Below the pieces are notes generated by a model that was given only the letters and a program-made list of their open reading frames with translations, ran no database searches and was not told the DNA's origin. Shown here in pieces: positions 3,767-61,793 of a DNA stretch of 64,000 bases. Every line of letters begins with the position of its first letter. The stretch's first letter is position 1. The position numbers were made by a program, and so were the translations under genes. This stretch comes from Gemmatimonadales bacterium (GTDB lineage: Bacteria > Gemmatimonadota > Gemmatimonadetes > Gemmatimonadales > GWC2-71-9). The stretch is taken from assembly GCA_033764615.1 (NCBI GenBank), contig JANRIU010000063.1:2779-66778 (forward strand). The letters are read 5' to 3'.

Positions 3767-4075
3767 CTACTCCTCGGTGATCACGAACAGCTCGTCGAGC
3801 TTGGTGAGCGTGAGGAGGTAGCGGATCTCGTCGGTGGGATTGCGCAGCGCCACCTCCAGCCCCCGCTCGATCGCCAGGCGACCGACCGCCATCAGCTCGC
3901 CGAGGCCGGCGGAGTCGACGTCGCGGGTGGGGGAGAGGTCGATGACGAAGCGGCCATCGCCGGGGGCGTGCTCCTCCAGCAGGCGCGTGGCATCCTGCCG
4001 GAAGTCATTGCGGGTCTCGAGGCCAAGGACGGACGGTGCGAGCATGCGGATCTCGGGCGTGAAAGTGTGAGCCAT
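3767..4075 (-). CDS. STAS-domain protein (anti-sigma-factor antagonist-like)
   Basis: 102 aa. DLSPTRDVDSAGLGELM and the C-terminal LLTLTKLDELF resemble SpoIIAA/RsbV-type STAS domains. GGAGG lies upstream of the ATG. Confidence 0.7.
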   Translation of the reverse strand: MAHTFTPEIRMLAPSVLGLETRNDFRQDATRLLEEHAPGDGRFVIDLSPTRDVDSAGLGELMAVGRLAIERGLEVALRNPTDEIRYLLTLTKLDELFVITEE

Positions 4076-4301
4076 GGGTTGCCTGCCTCCCCTAGGCCCG
4101 ATGAGTCACGTCCCTCGCATGCCTGCCACGGCCGGTGCTGCGGACCGTCGCGCCTTCGGCAACCGAGCCATCTCAGGTATCCTTCCCTGCACCAGCACCT
4201 GAGACCTCTGGTTTTGCGGCCCCGGATCGCTCCGGGTGTGCTCTTGTCGGGCGTACCGAACTACGCTTTTGACGACTGACTTCGCCTGCACTTCCCTGCT
4301 G

Positions 4302-8456: not shown

Positions 8457-9146
8457 CTACTTCGCCGCGGACGCGACCGGCGCGATCGAGTCCGCGATCT
8501 GCTTCAGGCGATCGGCCGCGAGGATGCCGGCGAAGAGCCGCCCGCCGATCAGGAACGTCGGCGTGCTGCTCACCCCGGCCGCCATCCCCTCGTTGAGGCT
8601 CGCCTGGATGCGCCCGGCGTGGCGGGTGCTCTGCATGCACGCGTCGTACTTCGCGCGGTCGAGCCCGGCCTGGTCGCCGTAGGAGGCGAAGAGGTCTCCG
8701 GCGTCGCCGGAGCGTTCCCAGTCGGCCTGCCCCGCGTAGATGAGCGCGTGCACGTCCCAGAAGCGGCCCTGCTCGTCGGCGCACGCCGCCGCATGCGCCG
8801 CGAGGCGCGCCCAGCGGTGCTGGTCGAGCGGGAAGTCCCGGTAGCGCCAGCGCACGCGACCCGACTCGATGAGCCGCTGCCGCACGTCGGGGAACTGCAC
8901 CGCCTCGAACTGCGCACACGCCGGGCACTGGTAGTCGGCGTACTCGACCACCTCCACCGGCGCGTCGGCCCGGCCGAGCACGTAACCGCGGAAGCCCGCG
9001 GTGTCGCTGGCCGTCACCGTCACGTTCGCCGGGATCGACGGCGACGTCGGCCGCATGAGCATCCAGCCGATCGCCACCGCACCGACCGCCCCCACCGCAC
9101 CCAGCACCACGAAGAACCGGTTCACCGATCTCCCCCCTGACGCCAT
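8457..9146 (-). CDS. DsbA-family thiol:disulfide oxidoreductase (membrane-anchored)
   Basis: N-terminal TM anchor and a thioredoxin-fold CxxC motif (YQCPACAQF). Ends 12 nt upstream of kup. Confidence 0.8.
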   Translation of the reverse strand: MASGGRSVNRFFVVLGAVGAVGAVAIGWMLMRPTSPSIPANVTVTASDTAGFRGYVLGRADAPVEVVEYADYQCPACAQFEAVQFPDVRQRLIESGRVRWRYRDFPLDQHRWARLAAHAAACADEQGRFWDVHALIYAGQADWERSGDAGDLFASYGDQAGLDRAKYDACMQSTRHAGRIQASLNEGMAAGVSSTPTFLIGGRLFAGILAADRLKQIADSIAPVASAAK

Positions 9147-10373: not shown

Positions 10374-10490
10374 GGCGGACTGGCGGACTGGCGGACTGGC
10401 GGACTGGCGGACTGGCGGACTGGCTGCAACGCAACCCGCGTTTCTCGCCGAGTCAACCGTCCGCCCTTCCGCCCGACCGCTCGTCCGCCC
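10374..10490. repeat. octamer inverted-repeat element A: (GGCGGACT)x6, 35-nt spacer, GTCCGCC-unit arm
   Basis: Six perfect tandem GGCGGACT copies at 10374-10421. The opposing arm ccgtccgcccttccgcccgaccgctcgtccgccc lies at 10457-10490, overlapping the 3' end of the phosphatidyltransferase gene. Confidence 0.85.
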
Positions 10491-14386: not shown

Positions 14387-17032
14387 TCAGCGGCCGCCGC
14401 CCGTCCCGCGGACGACGCCCTCGGCGCGGCGCTCGGGGGCGAGTGCCGCGCGGGCGACGGCGAGCACGTCCATCGCCGTGACGGCCCGGTAGGGGGCGCC
14501 GGGGTCGTCGAGCTCCTGCAGCCCCTCGCCCGCGATCCACGCATCCACGATCTCCGCGAGCACCGACGACGCGCTCTGGCGGCTCACCTCGGCCTGGCCC
14601 GCGAGGTAGTTGCGGGCGCGGTCGAGCTCGGCCTCGGTGACGCGCTCGCGGGCGAAGCGGCCGAGCTCGATGAGCATCGCCTCGCGCGCCTCGGCCTCGC
14701 GCTCGGGCGCGGTGGCGATGTAGGTGAGCAGCGCACCGGCGCGCCGCTTCTGCCACGTGGACGCCACGACCGAGTACGCGAGCGATCGCTGATCGCGCAG
14801 CGCCTCGAAGAGCCGCCCGCCGAGCCCGCCGGCGACGGCGGCCCACACCTCGGCAGCCCACCGCTCGGGGGCGCGGCGGTCGGGGCCCATGAACACCATG
14901 GCGAACGCGGACTGCGCCTTCTGCCGCTCGGCCTCGCGCGTGACGGGATGGTCGGTGATCGCATAGAGCTGCGGCGGCGGTGGCGGCGCGGCCTCGGCGG
15001 CGGGGAAGCTGCCGAACGCGGCCGCCAGCGCCTCGCGCGCGCCATCGGGGTCGAGGTCGCCGACGGCGACGACGAGCGGGCGCGCCGCGCGCCACGCGCC
15101 GCGGTGCCAGTCGGCCACGGCGGTGAGGGGGATGCCGGCGAGGGTGTCGGGGAGGCCGCTCGCGGGCAGGCCGTATCCCTCGTCGCCGAACGCGGCGCGG
15201 AAGGCGAGCTGGAACGGGTGGCGGAACATGTCGTCCGCCACCTGCAGCGCCTCCTGCCGCATGAGGCCGCGCTCGGTCTCGACGCTCGACGCCTCGTGGT
15301 GCGGGGCCGCGATCACGTCGGCGAGCAGGTGCGCGGCCTCGCCGAGGTGCTCGCTCAGCACGCTGGTGCCGAAGCCGATCCAGTCGAGGCCGACCGACGG
15401 CGCGAGCGTGCCGCCGAGCCCCTCGAAGGCGAACGCGAGCGCGGCCGCGTCGCGCCCGTTGGCGCCCCGCACCGCCGAGCGCGTCGCGAGCGCCGCGAGC
15501 CCCGCCCACTCGGCGGGCTCGGGGTGCGCGCGGGGGATGTACGCGCCGAGCGCCACGAGCGGCACGCCGCGCTTGGGGCGCACGACGATGTCGGCCCCGG
15601 GGAGCGCGAGCGTCAGCACCCGCGTGGGCGCGCGCGGCGGACGGGCGGACCCGCGGACCGGCGGACGGGAAGCCGGGGAGATGGCGGCGCCCGCGCTCGA
15701 GCCCTCCGCCCGTCCGCCGGTCCGCCCGCCCGCCCCGGCGGCGGCGAACAGGTCGGCCAGCGCCGTCGCATCGACCCCATGCGCCGCCGCCGCAGGCACG
15801 TAGGCCACCGCGCACACCGCCTCGGGCCGCAGCCAGCGCGCGGCGGCGTCGCGGATCTCCTCCGCGGTGGTGCGCTCGAGCGCCGCGAACTCCTCCTCGA
15901 GCAGGTGGAGGCCGCCCATCGCCTCGGCGTTCGCGAGCGAGGAGGCGCGCCCCTCGGTCGCCTCCATGCCGCGCGCCCAGCGCGCGAGGAGCAGCGTGCG
16001 TGCGCGCGCGAGGTCGTCGGCCGTGGGGCCCGCCTCGGCGAGGCGGCGCGTGGCGGCGGCGACGGCGGCGAGCACGTCGGGAAGGCGCGCGGGTTCGAGC
16101 TCGGCGCCGACGGAGAAGACGCCCAGCTCGCTCGGCTGGTAGTGCCATGCGCCGATGGAGGAGGCGAGTCCCGACTCGCGGACGGCGCGCTGCAGCCAGC
16201 TCCCGCGCCCGCTCGCGAGCACGGCGGCGGCGAGGTCGAGCGGCGCGGAATCCGCGTGCGACGGGGGAACGGCGCGCCAGCCGATGGCGAGGTCGGCCTT
16301 GGCGACCTCGCCGCGCAGCGTGCGGGCGCGCACCTCCGCGCGCGGCGGCTCCGCGGGCGAGGCGTCGGCCGAGCCGGGGCGCGCCTCCCAGCCGCCGTAC
16401 GCCTCGCGCGCGAGCGCGGCGGCCTCCGCCACGTCGACGTCGCCGACGATGCTCACGATGGTGCGCTCCGGCACGTAGCGCGAGCGGTAGTAGGTCCAGA
16501 GGTCGTCGCGCGTCATGGCGGCGAGGCCGGCCTCGGTGCCGATGCGCCAGCGGCGGATGCGGTGGTGGTCGAACATCACCTCGTGCAGCGTCTCGTGGCA
16601 GACGGCCGACGGCGTGTCGAGCTTCCGCTTCGCCTCCTGGATGATCACCTGGAGCTCGCGCCGCAGCTCGTCGGCGTCGAGGGCGCAGTGCATCAGCGCG
16701 TCGGCCTGCAGGTCGAGCGCCGTGGCGAGGCCGGAGGCGGGGAGGACGACGAAGTAGCTGGTGCGGTCGTACGAGGTGGAGGCGTTGAGGTAGCCGCCGG
16801 CGGCCTTCGTCTCGCGCGCGAGCGCGCCGGGGCCGCGCCGCGCGGTCCCCTTGAAGTACATGTGCTCGAGGACGTGGGAGATCCCCTGCACCGCGTCGGG
16901 CTCGTCGAAGAAGCCGGCACGCACGTGCGTGACGACCGCGACGGCCGGCGCCGAGGGATCGGCCTGCACGAGGAGCGTGAGCCCGTTCGGCAGCACCTCG
17001 CGGTGCACGCCGGCCGTCCAGCGCGGCGGCAC
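14387..17032 (-). CDS. fused two-module M16 (pitrilysin-family) zinc peptidase
   Basis: The first module has the inverted zinc motif HVLEH. The second module is M16-like without HxxEH. GTG start at 17032 lies 2 nt after the upstream TPR gene's stop. The rest of the 1198-aa tracked ORF overlaps that TPR gene out of frame. Confidence 0.8.
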   Translation of the reverse strand: MPPRWTAGVHREVLPNGLTLLVQADPSAPAVAVVTHVRAGFFDEPDAVQGISHVLEHMYFKGTARRGPGALARETKAAGGYLNASTSYDRTSYFVVLPASGLATALDLQADALMHCALDADELRRELQVIIQEAKRKLDTPSAVCHETLHEVMFDHHRIRRWRIGTEAGLAAMTRDDLWTYYRSRYVPERTIVSIVGDVDVAEAAALAREAYGGWEARPGSADASPAEPPRAEVRARTLRGEVAKADLAIGWRAVPPSHADSAPLDLAAAVLASGRGSWLQRAVRESGLASSIGAWHYQPSELGVFSVGAELEPARLPDVLAAVAAATRRLAEAGPTADDLARARTLLLARWARGMEATEGRASSLANAEAMGGLHLLEEEFAALERTTAEEIRDAAARWLRPEAVCAVAYVPAAAAHGVDATALADLFAAAGAGGRTGGRAEGSSAGAAISPASRPPVRGSARPPRAPTRVLTLALPGADIVVRPKRGVPLVALGAYIPRAHPEPAEWAGLAALATRSAVRGANGRDAAALAFAFEGLGGTLAPSVGLDWIGFGTSVLSEHLGEAAHLLADVIAAPHHEASSVETERGLMRQEALQVADDMFRHPFQLAFRAAFGDEGYGLPASGLPDTLAGIPLTAVADWHRGAWRAARPLVVAVGDLDPDGAREALAAAFGSFPAAEAAPPPPPQLYAITDHPVTREAERQKAQSAFAMVFMGPDRRAPERWAAEVWAAVAGGLGGRLFEALRDQRSLAYSVVASTWQKRRAGALLTYIATAPEREAEAREAMLIELGRFARERVTEAELDRARNYLAGQAEVSRQSASSVLAEIVDAWIAGEGLQELDDPGAPYRAVTAMDVLAVARAALAPERRAEGVVRGTGGGR
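15636..15736. repeat. octamer inverted-repeat element B, embedded in-frame in the M16 peptidase gene
   Basis: Left arm ggcggacgggcggacccgcggaccggcggacggg (15636-15669). Right arm ccctccgcccgtccgccggtccgcccgcccgcccc (15702-15736). The segment gcggaccggcggacgg is matched by a perfect 16-nt complement in the right arm. Confidence 0.8.
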
Positions 17033-19007: not shown

Positions 19008-19124
19008 GGCGGACGAGCGGACGGGCGTGCGGGCGGACCGTGGCCATGTGCCGGAGGATGGCATCCGGGGCGCTGGCGCTCCTCCTCGTCCAGACCGCCG
19101 CTCCGCCCGTCCGCCTGACCGCCC
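19008..19124. repeat. octamer inverted-repeat element C, flanking the TolC-like start codon
   Basis: Left arm ggcggacgagcggacgggcgtgcgggcggacc (19008-19039). Right arm ccgccgctccgcccgtccgcctgaccgccc (19095-19124). The ATG at 19046 lies in the spacer. Confidence 0.75.
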
Positions 19125-42944: not shown

Positions 42945-43924
42945 GGGAACACTCCGAGCGGCGCGGGCCCGACGGGCGCGATGGGCCACATCACGTCCAG
43001 GCCGTTGCGGGTGAGGATCGCGCGCCCCTCGGGCGAGAAGAGGAAGCGCGTGAACGCCTTCGCCGCCTCCGGGTTGGGCGCGCGGCGCGGGATGGTGAAG
43101 CCGTAGGCGATCGGCTCGCCGGTGAGCGTGAGCGTCGTCCCCTTCGGCCCGCGCACCTTCACGAGCGCGAGGGAATACTGCCGGGCGAGGCGCGACTCCG
43201 AGAGGTCGACCGCGGGGCCGAGGCGCAGCATGCGGAGCCCGGGCGTGACGCCGGCGATGGAGGCGTAGCTCCACGCGTAGTCGAGCTCGCCGGCCTGCAG
43301 CAGCGCGATGAGGTCGGCCTCCTTCGGCCGCATGTACTTCGGTGGCATCGCGCGCTCGAGCTGCAGCCCGAGCCCGATCTCGCCCGTGGCGGCCTCGAGC
43401 AGCTGCAGCACCATGAGCGTGCGGTAGCCGTTCGGGTCGAGCGCGGGGTCGGAGCGGCCGGTGCGCACGTCCGGCCGCGTCAGCACGCGCCACCAGTTGT
43501 CCTGGCGGATCTCGCGCGCGTACTTCGACCGGTCGGTGTAGGCGAGCACCATCGCATTCCTCGCGAAGACGGCGTGCCACGAGGCGTGCTCGGGCTCGAG
43601 CAGGCGGGGGATGAGCTGGTAGTCGGCGAGGAGCACCACGTCGGGCACCTTGCCGAGGTCGGTGATCTTCCGCACCGTCTCGAGCGACCCGGCGTTCTCC
43701 TGCCGCGTGTCCACCTTCGGGAAGCGCGCCTTGAACGCCTTCAGCACCTCGCCCACCGGCCGCGCGAGCGAGCCCGCGTTGAACACCGTGAGCGGGCCCT
43801 GCTGCGCGAGGGCGGACGGGCGGTCCGGCGGACTGGCGGACAGCAGCGCGACGAGCGGCAGCAGCCGGCGGAGCAGCGCGCCCCCGGTCCGCCCGTCCGA
43901 CCGTCCGCCCGTCCGCCCCTTCAC
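42941..43924 (-). CDS. periplasmic substrate-binding protein, ModA/WtpA (molybdate/tungstate)-like
   Basis: LTVFNAGSL, ENAGSLE, DVVLLADY and DPALDPNGYRT resemble oxyanion-binding PBPs. The only canonical start is a GTG overlapping the upstream stop (GTGA), so the N-terminal KGRTGGRSDGRTGG is encoded by the repeat arm. Confidence 0.7.
43809..43918. repeat. octamer inverted-repeat element D, between the prolyl oligopeptidase stop and the binding-protein signal peptide
   Basis: Left arm gggcggacgggcggtccggcggactggcggac (43809-43840). Right arm ggtccgcccgtccgaccgtccgcccgtccgccc (43886-43918). Confidence 0.8.
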
Positions 43925-46065
43925 GGCACCGGCGCCGTCACGCCCAGGTTGGCGAGCGTGAACGCATAGAGGTCGGCCGTCTCCTCGATCACCTTGCCCG
44001 TCGGCTTGCCGCCGCCGTGGCCGGCCTTCGTCTCGATGCGGATGAGCGCGGGCCGCCGGCCGGCCGACGCCGCCTGCAGCGCCGCCGCGAACTTGAAGCT
44101 GTGCCCCGGCACCACGCGATCGTCGTGGTCGGCGGTGGTGACGAGCGTGGCCGGGTAGTCGGTCCCCGGCTTCAGGTTGTGCAGCGGCGAGTACTTCGCG
44201 AGGTACGGGAACTGGCTCGCGCTGTCGGCGCTGCCGTACTCGGGCACCCAGCCCCAGCCCACCGTGAAGCGGTGGTAGCGCAGCATGTCCATCACGCCCA
44301 CCGCGAGGAGCGCCACGCCGAACAGCTCGGGCCGCTGCGTCATCACCGCGCCGACGAGCAGCCCGCCGTTCGACCCGCCCTGGATCGCGAGCCGCCGCGG
44401 GTTCGTGTAGCCCTCGCGCACGAGGTACTCCGCCGCGCCGATGAAGTCGTCGAAGACGTTCTGCTTGCGGTCGAGCATGCCGGCCTGGTGCCACCGCTCG
44501 CCGTACTCGCTCCCGCCCCGCAGGTTCGGCACGGCGTACAGCCCGCCCTGCTCCATCCACACGATGCGCGCCGGCGAGAACGACGGCAGCACGTTCACGT
44601 TGAAGCCGCCATACGCATACAGCAGCGTCGGCGTCACGCCCTCCCGCGGGAGCCCCTTCCGCCCCGTGATGAACATCGGGACGCGCGTCCCGTCCTTCGA
44701 CGTGTAGAACACCTGCGTCGTCTCGAACGCCGACGGGTCGAAGTCCACCGTCGGCGCCTTGAAGACGCGCGTGCGGCCGGTCACGAGGTCGAGGCGGAAG
44801 ATCGTCGTGGGGTAGAGGAACGACGAGAAGCCGAAGAACAGCTCGCGGTCGCCGCGCTTCGCGCTCACGCCGCCCACCGCGCCGATGCCCGGCAGCGCCA
44901 CGTCCGGCAGCGGCTTCCCCGCCAGCGTCACGCGGCGGATCACCGACTTCACGTCGCTCAGGTAGCCGATGACGAACTGGTCGCCGACGAGCGCCGCGAA
45001 CTGGATCGGCTCCTGCCGCTCGGGCACGATCTCCTGCCACGCCGACGGCTCGGGGCGGCCGAGCTCGATCGCCACGATCCGCTTGTTGGGCGCGCCCTGG
45101 TCGGTCGAGAAGTAGAAGCGCGTGCCGTCGTTGCCGAGCACGTCGTACGCGGCGTCGAACGCCTCGAGGAACGGGCGCACCGGCTGGTCGAGCCGCGGCG
45201 CCTTCGGGTCGCGCAGGTCCAGCACGTACACGCGGTCCCGCCGGTCGGTCCCCTCGTTGGCGTAGATGAGCAGGTACCGGCCGTCCTCGGTCAGCGTCGC
45301 GCGGATGTACCACAGCGGCTGGTCGGGCCGCTCGTAGATCAGCCGGTCGGCCGACTGGGGGTCGCCGAGGCGGTGGTACCAGACCTGCTGGTTCCGCGTC
45401 TGCGCGCTCATCCCCTTGCCGTCGGCCGGCGCGGGGAAGCGCGAGTAGAAGAAGCCCTTGCCGTCCTTCGTCCATTCCGCGGCCGAGAACTTGAGCCAGC
45501 GGAGCACGTCGGGGCGGTCCTGCCCCGTGCGCACGTCGCGGACGCGCAGCTCCTGCCAGTCCGAGCCCGACGCCGAGCGGCCCCACGCCAGTAGCGAAGC
45601 ATCGGGGCTCGGCGAGAGGTTCGTGAGCGCCACGGTGCCGTCGGACGAGAGCGTGTTGGGGTCGATCAGCACGCGCGGCGTGCCGGCGAGCCCGCGCTGC
45701 ACGTACAGCACCGACTGGTTCTGGAGCCCGTCGTTCCGGCTGTAGAAGTAGGTGCCGGCCTCCGAGAAGGGGACGCCGTACCGCTCGTAGTTCCAGAGCT
45801 TCGTGAGCCGCTCGCGCAGCGCCTGGCGGCGCGGGAGGCGCGCGAGGTAGTCGAACGTGACCGCGTTCTGCGCCGTCACCCACTCGGCGGTGGGCGCCCC
45901 GTCCTGGTCCTCCAGCCACCGGTACGGGTCGGCGACCTTCGTGCCGTGGTAGTCGTCCACCTGCTCCACCTGGCGCGTCGGCGGCGGCGTCGGCACGGGG
46001 ATCTGCGCCGCGAGCGGCGGCGCGAGCAGGACGGCGGCGGCGGCGAGTGACGGGAGGCGGACCAT
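43921..46065 (-). CDS. prolyl oligopeptidase (S9A family), secreted
   Basis: Signal peptide, DPYRWLED, a beta-propeller region, and a catalytic domain with GGSNGGLL and HGGG. Confidence 0.9.
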   Translation of the reverse strand: MVRLPSLAAAAVLLAPPLAAQIPVPTPPPTRQVEQVDDYHGTKVADPYRWLEDQDGAPTAEWVTAQNAVTFDYLARLPRRQALRERLTKLWNYERYGVPFSEAGTYFYSRNDGLQNQSVLYVQRGLAGTPRVLIDPNTLSSDGTVALTNLSPSPDASLLAWGRSASGSDWQELRVRDVRTGQDRPDVLRWLKFSAAEWTKDGKGFFYSRFPAPADGKGMSAQTRNQQVWYHRLGDPQSADRLIYERPDQPLWYIRATLTEDGRYLLIYANEGTDRRDRVYVLDLRDPKAPRLDQPVRPFLEAFDAAYDVLGNDGTRFYFSTDQGAPNKRIVAIELGRPEPSAWQEIVPERQEPIQFAALVGDQFVIGYLSDVKSVIRRVTLAGKPLPDVALPGIGAVGGVSAKRGDRELFFGFSSFLYPTTIFRLDLVTGRTRVFKAPTVDFDPSAFETTQVFYTSKDGTRVPMFITGRKGLPREGVTPTLLYAYGGFNVNVLPSFSPARIVWMEQGGLYAVPNLRGGSEYGERWHQAGMLDRKQNVFDDFIGAAEYLVREGYTNPRRLAIQGGSNGGLLVGAVMTQRPELFGVALLAVGVMDMLRYHRFTVGWGWVPEYGSADSASQFPYLAKYSPLHNLKPGTDYPATLVTTADHDDRVVPGHSFKFAAALQAASAGRRPALIRIETKAGHGGGKPTGKVIEETADLYAFTLANLGVTAPVP

Positions 46066-46138
46066 GACGGGTGACCTCGGGGCGGAGCACGGCGGGCGGG
46101 GTGGTCGAGCCAAGATAGCCCCCTCCCGTACCCCGGTG

Positions 46139-46144
46139 TATACT
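46139..46144 (+). promoter_or_regulatory. candidate -10 box (GGTG-TATACT) for the lipoprotein-cutA-yip1 operon
   Basis: TATACT preceded by CGGTG lies 52 nt upstream of the ATG at 46196. The same CGGTGTAyA context occurs at 9563-9572. Confidence 0.25.
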
Positions 46145-46195
46145 CTTCGCCGCTTTGTGCCACCGGACCCTCGGCATCGACAGGACCCGACTCGC

Positions 46196-46576
46196 ATGCG
46201 CCTCTTCCTGACCGCCCTCGTCGCCACCGTCGCCCTCGCCGGCTGCCGTCGATACGAGCAGTGGCCCGCGCTCGCCGACCAGGACGGCCTGATGAACGCC
46301 GACCAGTACGCCGGCTACGGCGCCGAGCAGGCGCAGAAGATCGCCATGGGGCGGAAGCTCGCCGAGCTGTACCAGGGCGACAGCTGGGAGGCCCGGGCGA
46401 AGCAGGTGGAGCAGGCGGTCGCCTACGCGAAGTCGCTGCCGGACGTCGCCGACGTGAAGGCCGACACCACCGGCTACTGGCTCACCGTGAAGTTCAAGAG
46501 CGGCTGGCGCGCGGCCGTCCTGCCGATCAAGGACGGGGTCGCGGCCGACGCGACGCCGGGCCTGACGAAGAAGTGA
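46196..46576 (+). CDS. hypothetical lipoprotein
   Basis: Lipobox VALAGC after a short signal peptide. GC3-rich. Confidence 0.55.
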   Translation: MRLFLTALVATVALAGCRRYEQWPALADQDGLMNADQYAGYGAEQAQKIAMGRKLAELYQGDSWEARAKQVEQAVAYAKSLPDVADVKADTTGYWLTVKFKSGWRAAVLPIKDGVAADATPGLTKK

Positions 46577-49947: not shown

Positions 49948-50217
49948 ATGAAGCGCGGAACTCTCGTCACCATCATCCTCTTCGTCGCCCTCGGCGCCTT
50001 CCTCGTGCTCCGCACCCTCGGCAGCCAGCGCACCGAGTGCGAGGTCACCGTGGAGTACGAGGGACGGCGGAACTCGGCACGCGCCAGCGGCGCCACGGAG
50101 CAGGAGGCGGCGCAGCAGGCCCAGACCACCGCCTGCGGCCCCATCGCCGCCGGCATGAACGCCACGATCGCCTGCACGAACCGGCGGCCCGTGGAAAAGA
50201 GCTGCAGGGCGAAGTAG
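49948..50217 (+). CDS. hypothetical small membrane-anchored protein (4 Cys)
   Basis: 89 aa with an N-terminal TM helix (LVTIILFVALGAFLVL). Strong GC3 bias. Confidence 0.5.
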   Translation: MKRGTLVTIILFVALGAFLVLRTLGSQRTECEVTVEYEGRRNSARASGATEQEAAQQAQTTACGPIAAGMNATIACTNRRPVEKSCRAK

Positions 50218-50261
50218 GCGGGCAGGCGGGCAGGCGGGCAGGCGGGCAGGCGGGGCGGACC
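50217..50261. repeat. tandem octamer array (GGCGGGCA)x4 followed by GGCGGGGCGGACC (variant element E; right arm degenerate or absent)
   Basis: Four perfect GGCGGGCA copies at 50217-50248, immediately after the stop of the 89-aa gene. Only weak cccgcc motifs lie downstream (about 50300-50345). Confidence 0.7.
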
Positions 50262-50500
50262 GATACCACGAGCTGTCGCACGATGCCGACAGCGGCGTAC
50301 CCTCCCGCCCACGGCCCCGGGCTCCAGGCCCTCGGCCACCCGCCATTCATGAACCCCCATTCACACTGATTTCATCATCGCAGTGTCCACCATGATCGCA
50401 GCTTTGGGGGTACAATCGCTCGTGGGCCATGCGGTTACGGTGTCCACGATGCGAGCGGCCACTCGCGCGCCGCATGAAGCAGCGGGGGTGGGGCACTTTC

Positions 50501-50515
50501 TGGCACCACAGTTGC
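50501..50515 (+). promoter_or_regulatory. sigma-54 promoter upstream of the GNAT gene
   Basis: TGGCACCACAGTTGC has exact TGGCAC-N5-TTGC spacing and core. It lies 61 nt upstream of the ATG at 50576. Confidence 0.7.
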
Positions 50516-50575
50516 TCTCCCATTGGCAGGACCCCTGCACGCCGGCCTCCCTGGCAGCCGGCACTGGAGGACACG

Positions 50576-51004
50576 ATGGGCGAGACGAACATCCGCGAGG
50601 TCACGCGCGACGACGAGTTCCGCGACTGGTTCGAGGAGCTGCTCGAGCGCGAGGACGCGTCGTATGACGCCGACGCGCACGCGGAGGAGCGGTGGCTCGT
50701 GGCGTCGAACGCGATCGGCGACTGGATCGGCGGCGTGCATTACCACCTGCGCGGCGGGGTGTCGCACCTGCTGGAGCTGGCGGTCGCTCCTGCCGAGCGG
50801 CATCAGGGGCATGCGCATGAGCTGCTGGCCGCGTTCGAGGAGCACAGCCTCGAGGCCGGCGCGCACGTGGTCGAGTTCTGGACCGAGGACACGCGTTCGC
50901 TCGCGCTGCTCGGCGCGCTCGGCTGGACGCCGGTGCTGGCCCGGCCGAACTACATCGGCGGGCGGACGTGGCACCTGATGGAGAAGCGCCTCGACGCCGC
51001 CTGA
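50576..51004 (+). CDS. GNAT-family N-acetyltransferase
   Basis: 142 aa. ELAVAPAERHQGHAHELL resembles the acetyl-CoA binding motif A region. GGAGGA lies upstream of the ATG at 50576. Confidence 0.65.
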   Translation: MGETNIREVTRDDEFRDWFEELLEREDASYDADAHAEERWLVASNAIGDWIGGVHYHLRGGVSHLLELAVAPAERHQGHAHELLAAFEEHSLEAGAHVVEFWTEDTRSLALLGALGWTPVLARPNYIGGRTWHLMEKRLDAA

Positions 51005-51171
51005 GCGCAGGTGCGGCGTCCCGGCCATTCCGCCGGGACGCCCACGGCGGTATCGTGGAGGGCTGGGCGCCTGGCGTCCGGCCCTCGTGTGCATGGGGGC
51101 CGGAGGCCCGCTGCCGCATCCCGCTCCCGGCGGCGCCGGGTCCCACTGGTCCCTGAGGAGTCGCATCGACG

Positions 51172-52146
51172 ATGAGCCTGACCGACGCCGCGCGCACGCT
51201 GGGTCGCAAGATCGAGGTCCTGAAGGACCTGGAGGGCCTCGTCGCCGAGATGATGGCGACGCATGAGGCGAAGCGCGAATTGTGGATGCCGTCGGACCTC
51301 ATCGGACCCGCGCCGGATGCCTGCCCCGACACGCACCGCAAGACGATGCGCGAGCGTGCGGCCGGCATCCCGGACCATGCGCGCGCGGCGCTGGCGCTCA
51401 ACCTGCTGACCGAGGAGGGGCTGCCGCACTTCCACCGCCTCCTCGCGGTGCACCTCCCGGACGACAGCCACTGGCGGAACTGGAACAACCTGTGGACCGC
51501 CGAGGAGGACCGCCACGGCGCGGTGCTGCACGACTACATGCATGACACCAGCATCCTCGACCAGCGGAAGCTGGAGGAGATGCAGTTCGAGTACATCAAG
51601 GCGGGCTTCAACCCGGACTGGGACCACGATCCGTACCGCGTCTTCGCCTACACGACGGTGCAGGAGCGCGCGACGCAGGTCTCGCACGCGAACACCGGCA
51701 AGCTGGCCGGCGAGTACGAGCCGATGCTCGGCATGGTGCTCGAGCGCGTGGCGATGGAGGAGGCGCGGCACTTCACGTTCTACCGCCGGGTGTTCGAGGC
51801 GATCCTCGAGCGCGACGCCGACGAGGCGCTCGAGTCGGCGAGCTTCATCCTCCCCGGAATCCAGATGCCCGGCTTCACGATGCCGAGCTTCCGCGACTTC
51901 GCCGACGTCGTCCGGCGCAGCGGCATCTACGGCCCGCGCGACTACATCCGCATCGTGCAGGACCAGATCCGCTACTGGCGCATCGAGCAGCTCACCGGGC
52001 TGGGCGAGGTGGGGCGGAAGGCGCAGGAGAAGATCCTCGCGATCCCGGACCGGCTGAAGAAGCTCGCCGACTACGTCGAGGCGCGGAGCCGCGCGAAGAG
52101 CTTCGCGTTCGACGTGGTGTTCAAGCGGGAGTTCGCCCTGTCGTGA
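51172..52146 (+). CDS. soluble acyl-ACP desaturase (di-iron, DesA-like)
   Basis: WTAEEDRHG and MEEARHFTFY di-iron motifs. Length and order match the FA_desaturase_2 family. Confidence 0.85.
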   Translation: MSLTDAARTLGRKIEVLKDLEGLVAEMMATHEAKRELWMPSDLIGPAPDACPDTHRKTMRERAAGIPDHARAALALNLLTEEGLPHFHRLLAVHLPDDSHWRNWNNLWTAEEDRHGAVLHDYMHDTSILDQRKLEEMQFEYIKAGFNPDWDHDPYRVFAYTTVQERATQVSHANTGKLAGEYEPMLGMVLERVAMEEARHFTFYRRVFEAILERDADEALESASFILPGIQMPGFTMPSFRDFADVVRRSGIYGPRDYIRIVQDQIRYWRIEQLTGLGEVGRKAQEKILAIPDRLKKLADYVEARSRAKSFAFDVVFKREFALS

Positions 52147-52586
52147 GGCGCCGCGCGGGGCTGCTCGCCGCGCTGGCCCTCGCGGCCGCCTGCGCCGGGC
52201 GGGAGAAGCCGGCGGCGGCGGACGACGCCGCGCCGCCGGCGCCGGACGCGCAGGCCGACGCCGACCGGCTCGGTCGCGAGCTGTTCGAGCTCGCCGACCG
52301 CACCGACAGCTACCGGGCCACGCACAAGCGGATGGCGAAGTCGTTCCGGGACATCGGCATCGACTCGCTGACGCCCGAGACGGCGCGGCGGCTCGCCGTG
52401 TCGGGGAAGGCGTTCCGCATCACCGTGGAGTTCCGCCAGGTCGAGGGACACCTGCTCCGCTCCTGCGAGGGGGACGAGCGGGTCATCGAGGAGGCGGCGC
52501 TCCACGAGGGCGTCTTCCCGCTCGAATGCACCCTGCTCGACGGCACGCGCGAGCGGCGGCTGGTCGGCGGCTCGAAGGGCGCCTGA
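52143..52586 (+). CDS. hypothetical lipoprotein
   Basis: The GTG start overlaps the desaturase stop (GTGA). Lipobox-like LALAAAC. Confidence 0.5.
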   Translation: MRRRAGLLAALALAAACAGREKPAAADDAAPPAPDAQADADRLGRELFELADRTDSYRATHKRMAKSFRDIGIDSLTPETARRLAVSGKAFRITVEFRQVEGHLLRSCEGDERVIEEAALHEGVFPLECTLLDGTRERRLVGGSKGA

Positions 52587-52589
52587 GGC

Positions 52590-53171
52590 GTGTGGCCCGA
52601 CGTGCTGGAGCGCGCCGCCCAGGTGGTGGCGGCCGGCGGTTTCGCGTACGCGGCGGTCGTCTTCGGCACCACGTGGGCGGTGCGGCAGGGGCACCTGCAG
52701 CCGTTCGGCGCGTGGCCCCGCCTCGTCCGCTCGCTCGGCGACCCCCTGCTCAAGCCGCTCGAACGCCGCCTGCTCCGGAGTGGCGGCAACCCGGTCGACG
52801 CGCCGCTCTGGCTCTTCGGCAGTTCGATCGTCGTGGGCCTCGTGCTGGTCACGGCCACCCGCTGGCTCATCTCGCTGTACTTCCAGTTCGCCGGCCTCGC
52901 CACGGCCGGGCCGAGGATGCTGGCCGCGAGCGTGGCGGCGCTGGTGTTCAACGTGCTGCAGTTCGCCCTGCTCATCCGCGTGCTCGGCAGCTGGTTCGGG
53001 ATCACGGGCGAGGAGTCGTGGATGCGTCCCGTGCGCATCCTGACCGACTGGCTGCTCGACCCCCTCCGGCGCATCATCCCGCCGTTCGGCCCCTTCGACC
53101 TGACGCCGCTGGCCGCGTACTTCGCGCTCAGGATCGCGGGGGACGCGCTCGTGCGGGCGCTGGCTGGGTAG
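52590..53171 (+). CDS. YggT-family membrane protein
   Basis: Two YggT-like halves, with ALLIRVLGSWFGI and LDPLRRIIPPFGPFDLTPL. Confidence 0.65.
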   Translation: MWPDVLERAAQVVAAGGFAYAAVVFGTTWAVRQGHLQPFGAWPRLVRSLGDPLLKPLERRLLRSGGNPVDAPLWLFGSSIVVGLVLVTATRWLISLYFQFAGLATAGPRMLAASVAALVFNVLQFALLIRVLGSWFGITGEESWMRPVRILTDWLLDPLRRIIPPFGPFDLTPLAAYFALRIAGDALVRALAG

Positions 53172-53174
53172 GAG

Positions 53175-53285
53175 GCGGGGCGGACGGGCGGACGGGCGGA
53201 CTGGCGGACCGGCGGACTGGGCATCGTGCACGCACGGCCGCCCGCCCACGAAGCCGCCTTCCGCCCGTCCGCTCGCCCGCCCCCC
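53175..53285. repeat. octamer inverted-repeat element F (yggT / metF intergenic)
   Basis: The left arm (53175-53221) has five GGCGGAC units. The right arm ccgcccgcccacgaagccgccttccgcccgtccgctcgcccgcccccc lies at 53238-53285. Confidence 0.8.
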
Positions 53286-53357
53286 GAGCGGCACTTTCCT
53301 TGCAGCACGCGGTATTCATGGCTAGCCTTCCGCCGTCCGATAATCGACGTCCGGCGT

Positions 53358-53400
53358 CGTGGCGATTTGTGCAGCTTGCGGCCACGTAAAACAACCGCTA
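53358..53400 (+). ncRNA. candidate H-type pseudoknot riboswitch (SAM-II/SAM-V-like) in the metF-metH leader
   Basis: P1 is CGUGGC (53358-63) pairing with GCCACG (53381-86). The U-rich L1 is GAUUUGUGCAGC. The loop 3' end UUGCGG can pair with the downstream CCGCUAA. The A-rich L3 is UAAAACAA. The GAUUU...GCUUG segment resembles SAM-II conserved positions. Confidence 0.3.
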
Positions 53401-53408
53401 AACCGCGC

Positions 53409-53433
53409 GCCCGGGGCGGTTCTCTCCCCGGGC
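53409..53433 (+). terminator. GC-rich hairpin in the metF leader (possible expression platform)
   Basis: An 8-bp stem (gcccgggg - cggttctct - ccccgggc) followed by aagccgtttcc. Confidence 0.35.
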
Positions 53434-53462
53434 AAGCCGTTTCCAGGGCAGGTACAGGACCG

Positions 53463-54349
53463 ATGCTGATTCCCTCCGCACCGCAGGACCTCAAGGTCTC
53501 GTTCGAGTTCTTCCCCCCCAAGTCGGCCGAGATGGAGGAGGCGCTGTGGCGCTCCATCAAGCGGCTGGAGCCGCTCGGGCCGCAGTTCGTCTCGGTGACG
53601 TACGGCGCGGGCGGCAGCACGCGCGAGCGGACGCACAACACGGTGCGCCGGATCGTGAAGGAGACGACGCTGCAGCCGGCCGCGCACCTGACGTGCGTGG
53701 CGGCGACGCAGGGCGAGCTCGACCAGGTGGCGGACGCATACTGGGGCGCGGGCGTGCGGCACATCGTGGCGCTCCGCGGCGACCCGCCGGGCGGGCAGGA
53801 GCGGTACACGCCGCATCCGGGCGGCTACGCCTGGACCGTCGACCTCATCGAGGGGCTCCGCCGCCTGCACGACTTCGAGATCACCGTCGCGTGCTTCCCG
53901 GAGGTGCACCCGGAGGCGCTCTCCGCCGAGGCCGACCTGGACAACCTGAAGCGGAAGATCGACGCCGGCGCCACGCGGGCGATCACGCAGTTCTTCTTCG
54001 ACAACGACGTGTACCTGCGCTTCGTCGACCGGGCGCGCGCGGCCGGCATCCACATCCCGATCCTGCCGGGGATCATGCCGGTCACGAACTTCAGGATGAT
54101 GGGCGTCTTCGCCGCGAAGGCGGGCGCCTCCGTCCCGGCGTGGCTCGGCACGCTGTTCGACGGGCTCGACGACGACGCCGAGACGCGGAAGCTCGTGGCG
54201 GCGACGGTGTGCGCCGAGCAGGTCCGCAAGCTGGAGGAGGCTGGGGTGCGCGAGTTCCACTTCTACACCTTGAACCGGGCCGATCTCTCCTACGCGATCT
54301 GCCACATCCTCGGCGTCCGGCCGGCCGCGGTGGCGGCGGGGAGCGCGGC

Positions 54350-54353
<4 letters not shown>
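53463..54353 (+). CDS. metF: 5,10-methylenetetrahydrofolate reductase
   Basis: [29 protein letters not shown] and ITQFFFD motifs. Confidence 0.92.
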
Positions 54354-58140
<3,787 letters not shown>

Positions 58141-58141
<1 letters not shown>

Positions 58142-58277
58142 GCGGACGGGCGGACGAGCGGACGAGCGGACGGGAACCAGAGCGTGAAGAGACGTGGGCG
58201 CGAGGGACGCCCCGTCGCCCTGACCGGACGTGCCCACCGGACGTCCGCCTGACCGCCCGTCCGCTCGTCCGCCTCCC
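58141..58277. repeat. octamer inverted-repeat element G (metH / acyl-CoA dehydrogenase intergenic)
   Basis: Left arm ggcggacgggcggacgagcggacgagcggacggg starts at the last base of the metH stop codon. Right arm cgtccgcctgaccgcccgtccgctcgtccgcctccc lies at 58242-58277. Confidence 0.8.
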
Positions 58278-58315
58278 TAGATTTCCCCCGCCCCCCGACC
58301 GGAGCCCCGCCCGCC

Positions 58316-59476
58316 ATGACCACGCTCGCCGCCCCCCAGCCGCTGTCGCTCCTCTCCGAGGAGGAGCAGATGTTCCGCGACGCGGTGCGCGAGTTCGCCG
58401 AGAGCGAAGTCCGCCCGCACGTCTCCGGGATGGACGAGGCGGGCGCGTTCCGCGCCGACCTCGTCGCGAAGTTCTTCGAGCAGGGGCTGATGGGGATCGA
58501 GGTGCCGGAGCGGTTCGGCGGCGCCGGCGCATCCATCTTCCTCGCGACGCTCGCCATCGAGGAGCTCGCGCGCGTGGACGCCTCCGCGGCGATCTACGTC
58601 GACGTGCACAACACGCTCGTCAACAACGCCTTCCTCAAGTGGGGGACGCCGGCCCAGCACGAGGCGTGGTTCCCCCGGCTCACGGGCGGCCTGCTCGGCG
58701 CGTTCGCGCTCTCCGAGCCGGGCAGCGGCTCCGACGCCTTCGCGCTGGCCACGCGCGCCGTGCAGCACGACGACCACTGGTCGCTCACGGGGCGGAAGCT
58801 CTGGATCACGAACGGCGCCGAGGCCGGCGTCTTCATCGTGTTCGCGAACGTCGACCCGTCGAAGGGCTACAAGGGGATCACCGCGTTCCTCGTCGAGCGC
58901 GACACCCCCGGCTTCACGGTCGGCAAGAAGGAGAACAAGCTCGGCATCCGCGCCTCCAGCACCACGGAGCTGATCCTCGAGGACGCGAAGGTGCCCGCGG
59001 CCAACGTGCTCGGCCCCGTCGGCCAGGGCTACAAGATCTCCATCGAGACGCTCAACGAGGGGCGCATCGGCATCGGCGCGCAGATGCTCGGCATCGCGCG
59101 CGGCGCGCTGGAGGCGGCGACCGCGTACGTGAAGGAGCGGAAGCAGTTCGGGAAGGCGATCGGCGAGTTCCAGGGGGTGCAGTTCCAGCTCGCCGAGATG
59201 GCGACCGACCTCGAAGCCGCGCGCCTGCTGGTGTACAACGCCGCGCGCCTCAAGGACGCGGGGAAGCCGTTCGTGCAGGAGGCGGCGATGGCGAAGCTCT
59301 TCGCCTCGCGCATGGCGGAGCGCGTCACCTCGATGGCGATCGAGCTGTTCGGCGGGAATGGCTACTCGAAGGAGTACCCGGTCGAGAAGTTCTGGCGCGA
59401 TGCCAAGATCGGCCAGATCTACGAGGGGACCAGCAACATGCAGCTGCAGACGATCGCGAAGGGGTTGCTCCGCTAG
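58316..59476 (+). CDS. acyl-CoA dehydrogenase (short/branched-chain type)
   Basis: ALSEPGSGSDA, ITNG, and the catalytic-base region YEGTSNMQ near the C-terminus. Confidence 0.92.
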   Translation: MTTLAAPQPLSLLSEEEQMFRDAVREFAESEVRPHVSGMDEAGAFRADLVAKFFEQGLMGIEVPERFGGAGASIFLATLAIEELARVDASAAIYVDVHNTLVNNAFLKWGTPAQHEAWFPRLTGGLLGAFALSEPGSGSDAFALATRAVQHDDHWSLTGRKLWITNGAEAGVFIVFANVDPSKGYKGITAFLVERDTPGFTVGKKENKLGIRASSTTELILEDAKVPAANVLGPVGQGYKISIETLNEGRIGIGAQMLGIARGALEAATAYVKERKQFGKAIGEFQGVQFQLAEMATDLEAARLLVYNAARLKDAGKPFVQEAAMAKLFASRMAERVTSMAIELFGGNGYSKEYPVEKFWRDAKIGQIYEGTSNMQLQTIAKGLLR

Positions 59477-59483
59477 AGGGGGT

Positions 59484-59525
59484 GCCGGCGGGCCGGGCGC
59501 ATGTTATGCCGCCCGGCCCGCCGGC
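59484..59525. terminator. bidirectional terminator between the acyl-CoA dehydrogenase and fasciclin genes
   Basis: A perfect 16-bp stem (gccggcgggccgggcg / cgcccggcccgccggc) with a 10-nt AT-containing loop, catgttatgc. Confidence 0.65.
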
Positions 59526-59541
59526 CCTCATGCCGCCCTGC

Positions 59542-60039
59542 TCAGGGCATGACCACCGCGTCGATCACGTGGATCACGCCGTTCGAGGCCATGATGTCGG
59601 CCTTCACGACGTTCGCCGCCATCCCCTTGCCCACGTGCACCGCCTTGCCGGCGAGGTGGATCGGCAGCTCGCTGCCCTCGACCGTCTTCGGCTTCACGTT
59701 GCCGTCCTTGTCGGCGAGCTTCGTCAGGTCGCCGGCGTGCACCATGCCGGGCACCACGTGGTACGTCAGCACCTTCGTCAGCTTCGCCTTGTCCTTGAGC
59801 AGCGCCTCGAGCGCCGCCTTCGGCACCTTCGCGAACGCCTCGTCCGTCGGCGCGAAGACGGTGAACGGCCCCTTGCCCTTCAGCGTCTCGACGAGGCCGG
59901 CGGCCTGGAGCGCCGTGGCGAGCGTCTTGAAGCTGCCGGCGGCGACGGCCGTCTCGACGATGTCCTTCTGCTGGGCCGCCGACGGCGCGGCGACGGCGAA
60001 CGCCGCGACCGCGGCCAGGGCGAGCGAACGAATGCGCAT
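59542..60039 (-). CDS. fasciclin (FAS1) domain secreted protein
   Basis: Signal peptide, [17 protein letters not shown] and [11 protein letters not shown] motifs. Confidence 0.85.
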
Positions 60040-60202
60040 CTTCTTCTCCGGTAACGCGTTGTAGGGGGGCACACCGCCACCCCGCTTCGGGGTGACGAAT
60101 CATGTACCCGACCGCACCGCTCGGGTTCCCGGCTTGGCACCGTTCCTGCCCTTCCGATATCCAGCCTTGACCAACAGCGTTCCGGAGGCGGAAGTTTCTG
60201 CC

Positions 60203-61675: not shown

Positions 61676-61685
61676 GGGCGCCGCG

Positions 61686-61793
61686 GGGCGGACTGGCGGA
61701 CTGGCGGACTGGCGCAGAGGGACGCCCGAACCGGCACGTCCTCAGTGTGCTCCAGTGGCCGCCCGCCCGTCCGCCCGTCCGCTCGTCCGCCGC
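61686..61793. repeat. octamer inverted-repeat element H (between convergent dacB and the RND pump)
   Basis: Left arm ggggcggactggcggactggcggactggcg (61686-61714). Right arm ccgcccgcccgtccgcccgtccgctcgtccgccgc (61759-61793), overlapping the 3' end of the RND gene. Confidence 0.8.

Follow-up and report, generated by a model that had tools for sequence, protein, structure and literature searches.

A translated octamer hairpin repeat in the tether of a fused M16 peptidase from Gemmatimonadales

Introduction

How does the gene for a large peptidase come to carry, in its middle, a complete hairpin repeat that is translated from end to end? The question is raised by a 64,000-nt stretch of DNA from a Gemmatimonadales bacterium (GenBank assembly GCA_033764615.1, contig JANRIU010000063.1, positions 2,779 to 66,778), termed here the window, to which all coordinates without a prefix refer. 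The window is 74% GC overall, and an inverted repeat whose arms are tandem arrays of 8-nt units, the octamer or GGCGGACN family, is dispersed along it. One copy lies within a gene for an M16 (pitrilysin-family) peptidase, between the active and the inactive half of the enzyme. Is it a latecomer in an old gene, the seam left when two genes were joined, or a device that the gene has put to use? The analysis below argues that the M16 copy is probably a tolerated, translated member of a hairpin repeat family resembling the repetitive extragenic palindromic (REP) sequences and the Rickettsia palindromic elements (RPE), accommodated in a disordered tether. Most likely it is a passenger, selfish or seemingly neutral DNA, and neither an adaptation nor a recent fusion seam.

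The M16 gene and the element within it

The gene, its halves and the parts of the element, the latter in the order in which the gene reads them, are as follows.

14387-17032, minus strand: M16 (pitrilysin-family) peptidase gene, 881 aa, GTG start at 17032, stop at 14387
15794-17008, minus strand: N-terminal half, residues 9-413, resembling active M16B subunits (3amj_C, E = 3e-44) and containing HVLEH
15704-15735, minus strand: arm read first, G-rich (GGCGGRCN)x4, translated GAGGRTGGRAEG; as the right arm of the element its units are CTCCGCCC GTCCGCCG GTCCGCCC GCCCGCCC
15668-15703, minus strand: spacer, translated approximately SSAGAAISPA and unrelated to the spacers of other copies
15636-15667, minus strand: arm read second, C-rich (NGTCCGCC)x4, translated SRPPVRGSARPP; as the left arm its units are GGCGGACG GGCGGACC CGCGGACC GGCGGACG
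14405-15616, minus strand: C-terminal half, residues 473-876, resembling the inactive M16B subunits 7v4y_B, 5hxk_A and 3amj_B, without HxxEH

The open reading frame (ORF) is a single continuous frame through the element, and its product matches, at 100% identity, P0001, which is deposited as a 'pitrilysin family protein' from a metagenome-assembled genome (MAG) of Gemmatimonadales. Peptidase_M16 (PF00675) and M16_C (PF05193) of Pfam each match it in two stretches, which gives two homologous halves. The sole HxxEH of the protein is HVLEH at residues 53-57 (16862-16876), with H53, E56 and H57 invariant in the alignment of M16 homologues. The AlphaFold2 model, with a predicted local distance difference test score (pLDDT) of 85.9 and a predicted template-modelling score (pTM) of 0.86, was matched by Foldseek to whole single-chain clamshell enzymes (9ldy_A, TM 0.75; IDE, TM ~0.72), though identity to such solved single-chain enzymes is only 14-17%. 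With its zinc motif and its two halves both in place, the protein is a four-domain clamshell M16 metallopeptidase.

The hairpin runs from 15630 to 15741 when its outer pairing is included. Its core, 15636-15735, read directly from the window, agrees in sequence with the earlier description and is laid out as four tandem 8-nt GGCGGACN-type units, a 36-nt spacer and four complementary NGTCCGCC-type units. An inverted-repeat search delimited arms of 36 nt that are 86% complementary with 33 nt between them, and Tandem Repeats Finder reported period-8 arrays in each arm. In the mRNA sense the copy is predicted to fold at -92.5 kcal/mol (z = -4.6), and none of 200 shuffled sequences folded as well; no Rfam family matched the element. 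The full hairpin encodes residues 431-468 of the peptidase and the core residues 433-466. The sole long stretch of the model with pLDDT <50 is residues 433-470, which is without secondary structure, and the element-encoded tether between the active and inactive halves is predicted to be disordered. A preceding sequence-only reading of this DNA had placed a repeat at 15636-15736, in frame between the M16 halves, and this is borne out: it is one of an eight-copy family and lies in a continuous 881-aa ORF, the quoted linker peptide GGRTGGRAEGSSAGAAISPASRPPVRGSARPP being found at 15635-15730 on the minus strand.

An old fusion and a younger hairpin

Did the element join the two halves, or find them joined? 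A scan of species-representative genomes gave 401 M16 relatives, from which 80 loci were kept for comparison. The 120 best protein homologues are 867-905 aa long, and the fused architecture is present in 80/80 of the loci kept; fusion is thus shown to be ancestral. The suggestion of the sequence-only reading that two adjacent M16 genes had been fused across an intergenic element does not survive this comparison, and the search for relatives with two separate M16 genes, which it had proposed as a check, came back with fused genes at all 80 loci.

Tether length was counted between F429 and L477, the invariant anchors of the window protein. It is 36 aa in 44/80 loci and in 68/202 proteins, and 47 aa in the window M16. 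In the alignment the tether edges are conserved (AVTxL ... EAxVxHT) and the middle is variable. Some 37 element-encoded residues stand in for ~26 native ones, for a net gain of 11 aa over the modal tether. An indel of about 30-35 aa had been expected from comparison with orthologues; what is seen is this smaller gain with native residues replaced, and a clean insertion of 33 aa was rejected on these grounds.

Is there a hairpin at this place in M16 genes generally? When the minimum free energy of each tether was compared with that of windows of its own gene, no general signal of a conserved RNA hairpin emerged. The 36-aa tethers as a group show no excess (median z = -0.24), the outliers being the window M16 (z = -3.4), L018 (-6.7) and L043 (-4.0). 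On the neighbour-joining tree, 36-aa tethers turn up in several separate clades; the window M16 stands alone on a deep branch. Because the homologues are fused and the 36-aa tethers, widespread on the tree, show no hairpin signal as a group, the joining of active to inactive subunit is old and the hairpin is a lineage-specific addition. An M16B subunit fusion did happen, the halves matching the separate subunits 3amj_C and 3amj_B/7v4y_B, but long before the element arrived.

Reading frames and tolerance

What allows such an element to be read through? Since the three frames cycle every 24 nt, the cyclic 8-residue peptide of an 8-nt unit is the same whichever frame is read, and because the element is an inverted repeat the G-rich arm comes first and the C-rich arm second in either orientation. 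Every in-frame copy translates as a GGRADGRT-type stretch, a spacer and then a SARPPVRP-type stretch, that is, Gly/Arg/Ala-rich followed by Pro/Arg/Ser-rich, hydrophilic and flexible in composition. The cyclic translations that had been put forward, GGLADWRT and SPPVRQSA, are correct for the GGCGGACT unit. All six frames of the M16 copy are free of stops, as are those of each unit variant. The further step, of taking the stop-free octamer as what explains the open gene, holds only in part: the octamer is indeed stop-free in six frames, but that is a by-product of 74% GC and not special to it. Tandem arrays of 83% of the 8-mers in the window are stop-free in six frames, and random 100-nt segments of the window are open in a given frame in 73% of cases and in all six in 14%. 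At such a GC content six-frame openness is unremarkable.

The family in soil metagenomes

Soil metagenomes scanned for complete GGCGGACN-type copies gave at least 120 stretches; the class counts below cover the 120 listed.

In frame inside a gene: 17 of 120
Coding-like ORF whose stop codon is in an arm or no more than 60 nt away: 54 of 120
No gene end detected: 37 of 120
Near a contig edge: 12 of 120

The 17 in-frame copies fall in seven different genes, with an eighth host gene in L203. Six hosts could be named from Pfam (acetoacetyl-CoA-synthetase-like, PGM/PMM, PabB/TrpE-like, ATP synthase gamma, DnaX and acetolactate synthase), and in 6/6 the site is an inter-domain linker or loop. The host in L176 (1069-2091, minus strand) is, by its PDB matches, the FAD-binding subunit of a CoxM/HcrB-type dehydrogenase. 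Its element occupies residues ~65-100 in such a way that the arms flank a conserved LxIGA..T motif, which itself lies inside the spacer. Compared with 1rm6_B and 1ffv_C the protein has a net gain of only 3 or 4 aa, and therefore the arms replaced native segments almost equal to them in length. Copies of the family are thus shown to lie frequently in frame in linkers or loops of other enzymes. Among the DNA compared, the in-frame metagenome hosts had only paralogues or element-bearing copies as counterparts, and no element-free orthologue.

Where do the remaining copies lie? The distance from stop codon to element is -2 to +5 nt in 42 of the 60 copies measured (among the 120 listed), and the same abutment of stop codons is seen around L018 and in the window copies. 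No target-site duplication was found: shuffled pairings of flanks give best direct repeats at least as long as the real pairings do. Nor do the flanks of family copies have a conserved motif. Spacers range from 5 to 71 nt. Of 87, 59 are singletons, the clusters of related spacers being orthologous loci, and no conserved spacer or core is present among the copies. A search of the literature by concept and by literal sequence found no description of these octamer arrays.

Arrays in the same tether in other lineages

The window M16 is not alone in having its tether occupied. L018, L081, L043, L082, L083 and L017, whose proteins are 70-79% identical, have in common a tether element (GGCGGCTC)n...(GAGCCGCC)n, at the same junction in each, directly after AVTEL. 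Its arrays are near-perfect in some members of this clade and decayed in others, the spacers differ, and the tether copy of L018 has its loop in common with two further copies of the L018 genome. The window M16 lies outside this clade. L039, L071, P0130, P0139 and others have tether arrays of other units, some of them with a 9-nt, in-frame period.

Arms of the GGCGGACN type recur in a further group. At the protein level P0020 and P0050 have both arms, and P0108, 91% identical to them, has the C-rich arm only; the tether of P0100 (79% identical), of normal length at 37 aa, contains a C-arm array of four units (L205:4345-4392). The M16 tether has thus been occupied at least twice independently, and the two arms need not come together. 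A C-arm without a G-arm fits stepwise local assembly better than the insertion of a ready-made unit.

Several further repeats were observed in these genomes. In-frame direct repeats are present in the M16 tether at L035:11282-11401, with a 12-nt period (PPARPPARPPAGPPARP), and at L039:10817-10954, with a 9-nt period (GTVGTVETVG ... PSRPSR). The L018 genome carries the unit families GGCGGCTC, GGGAGAAC, GGAATGGC and ACGCCTTG side by side (3851-4182, 8648-8687 and 9867-9934 of L018), the GGGAGAAC pair flanking a 150-nt core with the palindrome TGTCATTCCGAGGAAGCGAAGCGACCGAGGAATCCC. Octamer arrays stand at the very start or end of contigs from related MAGs (L005:1-37, L008:1-107, L074:1-31 and L079:12701-12728), so that the arrays appear to be assembly breakpoints.

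The other copies in the window

The window holds eight copies in 64 kb, each with an arm of (GGCGGACN)3-6, an unrelated spacer and an arm of (NGTCCGCC)3-6. Array calls rest on a consensus-based scan and a pattern search. A three-unit pattern allowing <=3 mismatches has 35 matches against 0.09 expected from shuffles, all of them within the eight elements, and its polarity is fixed, the left arm always being on the plus strand and the right arm always on the minus strand. The copies are predicted to fold as long hairpins (z = -2.3 to -6.6; -69 to -92 kcal/mol). Besides the M16 copy the following were placed.

10374-10490 (E1): at the junction of CDP-alcohol phosphatidyltransferase and OsmC genes
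19008-19124 (E3): spacer contains the start codon (19046 or 19058) and the signal-peptide hydrophobic core of an OEP/TolC-like gene
43811-43918 (E4): follows a minus-strand prolyl oligopeptidase gene (43921-46227), 2 nt beyond its stop
50217-50254, plus strand: variant array (GGCGGGCA)x4.9, alternatively written (AGGCGGGC)x4.9, perfect, with partner arm weak or absent
53179-53282 (E6): 7 nt beyond the stop of a YGGT gene, with a SAM riboswitch 67 nt downstream
58141-58274 (E7): the methionine synthase gene (53546-58141) stops at a TAG whose final base lies in this copy
61687-61792 (E8): between convergent genes, starting 11 nt beyond the S13 peptidase stop codon

Three of these contribute coding sequence. 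The right arm of E1 supplies the final 13 codons of the phosphatidyltransferase gene, GRADERSGGRADG*, with the stop at 10453. In most of 65 relatives the two genes at this junction lie end to end (-4 to +7 nt), against a gap of 102 nt in the window, and the usual end of the protein in relatives, ...WDYYRVAPRAxRRVGG*, is extended in the window to GRADERSGGRADG*. Inverted arrays of unrelated 7-9-nt units occupy the same junction in four other genomes.

L071:16250-16347: unit GTACCGA (7 nt)
L073:5623-5721: unit CGCAGAGG
L032:14354-14616: unit CAGAGAAC, nested with a second pair
L039:15896-16190: unit CGTTCCNC, with inner arrays CCCGTCTC and ACTTCTCA

The right arm of E8 encodes RTSGRADGRAA in the tail of an RND (CzcA-like) pump, with the stop at 61742. 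Homologous CzcA tails are 5-40 aa long, and the E8-coded tail is within that natural variation. Both C-terminal contributions had been reported by the sequence-only reading and both were located; the OEP signal peptide of E3 is a further in-frame case that it had missed. The left arm of E3 is in the 5' untranslated region, its right arm encodes TAAPPVRLTAQ around the predicted cleavage site, and the signal peptide within its spacer is homologous in position to that of OEP orthologues. The E3 hairpin could sequester the translation start of the OEP gene. The idea of a non-coding repeat entering proteins is thus upheld by the M16 tether, the two C-terminal tails and 17 of the 120 listed metagenome copies, but not as a matter of clean insertion. 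The coding overlaps of window copies fall only in unconstrained segments, and the overlaps of E1, E8, E3 and L176 show that arms can overwrite native sequence on either side of a retained segment.

The variant array at 50217-50254 begins at the final base of the TAG that ends a coding-like ORF, and it may be a half element. Within 50000-62500, which includes four copies and several gene ends, no intrinsic-terminator-like site was found (3.1 expected from shuffles) and no sigma-70-like promoter; the flanks of the window copies have no T-run, and hence the copies do not qualify as intrinsic (Rho-independent) terminators.

Two riboswitches were also observed in the window. A c-di-GMP-I aptamer at 4155-4252 on the minus strand scores 54.8 bits, where the gathering score is 35. 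At 53349-53425 on the plus strand there is a SAM_alpha riboswitch (40.9 bits) of RF00521, whose name refers to the Alphaproteobacteria; it lies upstream of the gene for B12-dependent methionine synthase (53546-58141) in this Gemmatimonadales genome.

How the element came to be there, and the alternatives

Members of the family usually begin right after stop codons, where, in the interpretation favored here, extragenic copies could act as RNA hairpins at 3' ends as REP elements do. The M16 copy sits in an unstructured tether joining the active to the inactive half of an anciently fused clamshell. Its tolerance there would have three components: such a tether presumably needs length and flexibility and not a specific sequence; the element yields the same cyclic peptide in any frame, and the same order of arms in either orientation; and stop codons are rare at 74% GC. 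As to arrival, native GC-rich sequence was apparently overwritten, in place of a cut-and-paste insertion with target duplication. Stretches rich in GGCGG/CCGCC may have made this possible, through ectopic conversion or template switching between them; a single-strand mechanism like that of REPINs is the other candidate. REPIN-like single-strand transposition fits because there are no duplications and the element is a hairpin doublet; templated overwriting or template switching fits better, since spacers are native, net length changes are small and arms are acquired stepwise.

Several observations sit awkwardly with a tolerated repeat that simply arrived. A hairpin predicted at -92 kcal/mol in mid-ORF could affect expression. 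The nearest other homologues in the protein collection are only 62-65% identical to the window protein, so that no close relative offers an empty site. The net change is +11 aa and not ~+33, and therefore either a simple insertion was later trimmed by deletion or native sequence was overwritten. In the P0020/P0108/P0100 group there are C-rich arms without G-rich arms in tethers of normal length. Spacers may hold native coding sequence (LxIGA in L176; the start codon and signal peptide in E3), and family copies are without target-site duplication and without conserved flank motif; no transposase came to light, though no search aimed at one was made. Lastly, the arms of the L018 clade stay near-perfect arrays though the proteins are only 70-79% identical, which implies homogenisation or selection, so that the arrays may not be strictly neutral.

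Could the element have been made where it now stands? Slippage would have turned GC-rich native codons for Pro, Arg and Gly into arrays of octamers, intrastrand template switching (quasi-palindrome completion) would have written the second arm, and gene conversion at a later stage would account for the likeness to other copies. Such a local origin is unlikely, though a good deal is in keeping with it: the small net changes (+11 aa in the M16, +3 or +4 aa in L176), native coding sequence serving as spacer (E3, L176), the C-arm alone in the normal-length tethers of P0100 and P0108 next to both arms in the 90-91%-identical P0020 and P0050, unrelated spacers without target-site duplications, a native phosphatidyltransferase tail (RRVGG*) that was already GGCGG-rich, and unrelated units at the same gene junction in different genomes. 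What tells against it is that eight window copies and at least 120 metagenome copies have the same octamer and the same polarity, which rules out independent slippage unless there was a common template or strong exchange between copies. Moreover, the three L018 copies have even their loop in common, and the P0020 group is known as protein, where the change could be either gain or loss of the G-arm.

A bolder proposal, and a rather doubtful one, is that inverted repeats of octamer arrays are not ordinary mobile elements but the product of a process that writes hairpins, whether by templated overwriting of GC-rich sequence or by repeats that may be added to 3' ends at breaks. It would explain the fixed polarity (G-rich arm 5' on both strands) together with the lack of target duplications; small net changes, arms that appear singly, and spacers that either have nothing in common or hold native coding sequence; and unrelated units at the same junction across genomes, with starts near stop codons. 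If true, the Gemmatimonadota would possess a mechanism, as yet undescribed, for installing hairpins at 3' ends, with rewritten linkers as a side effect.

Has the M16 gene put its copy to use? The mRNA hairpin might pause ribosomes between the halves, with consequences for folding or product ratio, or make a 3' end inside the transcript; or selection might act on the G/R- and P/R-rich peptide that the element encodes. The two forms taken together are distinctly improbable. The hairpin is very stable, arrays in the L018-clade tether persist across 70-79% protein identity, the same tether is occupied in several lineages and REP hairpins close to stop codons are reported, in work cited in PMC12306157, to affect translation. 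Nevertheless most loci (44/80) have a plain 36-aa tether with no group hairpin signal, units and spacers differ from lineage to lineage, the peptide is predicted to be disordered, and the occurrence of the same element in unrelated enzymes and after unrelated genes argues against a gene-specific role.

That the element is a fusion scar, left when adjacent genes for an active and an inactive M16 protein were joined by read-through across a post-stop intergenic copy, is very improbable. The idea has its appeal, as the family is normally found right after stop codons, the halves resemble the separate subunits of heterodimeric M16B enzymes and the element is exactly between them. It founders on the 120 best homologues and the 80/80 loci that are fused, with tether length and edges (AVTxL ... 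EAxVxHT) conserved, on 36-aa tethers that have no group hairpin signal, and on the spread of the 36-aa state over the tree when element-bearing tethers are confined to particular lineages. From the homologues, the tether lengths and the tree, the fusion is much older than the M16 copy.

An artefact of MAG assembly or sequencing, with the repeat mis-joined or collapsed and the true gene split or element-free, is hardly credible: the source is a MAG and contigs of related MAGs often end in such arrays (L005, L008, L074, L079), but the flanks are two halves of one orthologous gene in correct order and frame with conserved synteny, independent assemblies, including long-read MAG contigs of 0.5-3 Mb, have analogous in-frame arrays in the tether, and only the number of units could plausibly be wrong.

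Comparison with known systems

As a protein, the window M16 is familiar. Its N half resembles the active, and its C half the inactive, subunit of heterodimeric M16B (Sphingomonas A1, 3amj), and like the single-chain clamshells (IDE, PqqL, FusC, 9ldy), on which the whole model superposes with TM 0.72-0.75, it has a single HxxEH. What sets it apart from known clamshell M16 peptidases is that a genomic repeat encodes its tether. The gene belongs, intact, to a conserved family of fused enzymes and is no recent chimera.

Which repeats does the octamer family resemble? A miniature inverted-repeat transposable element moved by a DDE transposase was considered and set aside, as the copies have neither target-site duplications nor a conserved motif in their flanks. 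The mycobacterial interspersed repetitive units (MIRU) are GC-rich short repeats at operon gene junctions with frames joined to flanking genes; they are direct tandem repeats of 40-100 bp, unlike the inverted octamer arrays. Foldback elements are eukaryotic and kilobase-sized, encode or depend on a transposase and make target duplications. The Galileo (PMC3573991) and Foldback elements of Drosophila are similar in having inverted arms of short tandem sub-repeats with arm length and middle both variable, a likeness that implies no homology. The tandem repeats of Borgs (PMC9879509) are likewise fast-evolving short repeats translated into new disordered segments, but Borg in-gene repeats are direct with units that are multiples of 3 nt, whereas the octamer family has 8-nt units in paired inverted arrays.

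REPs occur both within genes and downstream of genes (PMC3733652). With REPs and REPINs (PMC3116915; PMC3733652) the octamer family has in common inverted conserved ends around a less conserved spacer, a hairpin, the lack of target-site duplication, a mainly extragenic distribution that favors 3' sides of genes and convergent junctions, with occasional intragenic copies, and the presence of different families in different genomes. Each REP, however, makes an imperfect palindrome of its own, short and tagged with GTAG or CGTC, whereas an arm of the octamer family is a direct 8-nt tandem array of variable copy number; the CGTC inside CGTCCGCC-form units is within the paired stem and is not an unpaired terminal tag. 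The spacer of a REPIN is conserved in length against 5-71 nt here, and unlike REPs or REPINs some octamer-family copies enclose native coding sequence. The family thus has the inverted hairpin doublet lying mainly 3' of genes, without the palindromic tagged ends. According to PMC12306157, REP hairpins are reported to stabilise 3' ends, and those <=15 nt from a stop codon to stall ribosomes at termination and so lower expression (ref. 17 therein). In this respect the 42/60 measured octamer-family copies that start -2 to +5 nt from a stop are comparable; their hairpins are much longer and more stable (-69 to -92 kcal/mol), and their position, inside the range reported to matter, would allow a similar effect.

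RPE are a precedent for translation. In the review PMC10969869 they are described, after Ogata et al. 2000, as palindromic repeats translated in frame. Like RPE, the octamer family consists of dispersed palindromic repeats of ~100-150 bp that are in frame in unrelated housekeeping genes at fold-tolerant sites. Unlike RPE, which are conserved over their whole length and in their peptide, octamer-family copies have the arms alone in common, with unrelated spacers; the arms are tandem octamers, and the host belongs to a free-living high-GC soil phylum and does not have a reduced intracellular genome. A dispersed hairpin family and an unbroken frame at a permissive site are therefore found in both, and conservation of the whole element in RPE only. 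The likeness is one of kind of event; no sequence relationship to RPE was seen, though no search aimed at one was made.

The palindromic repeats best known for being translated are those of Rickettsia, and there they are tied to genome decay. A comparable phenomenon in a free-living high-GC soil phylum, at appreciable frequency (~14% of the 120 listed copies are in frame), makes octamer repeats a recurrent source of new disordered linkers, and for those who call genes or assemble genomes of Gemmatimonadota they are a practical trap of spurious ORFs, contig breaks and odd low-complexity inserts. The behaviour of the family as a whole is of more interest than the M16 case alone. Octamer arms, no conserved core, no target duplication, starts next to stop codons and the enclosure of native coding sequence: the combination is that of no described family.

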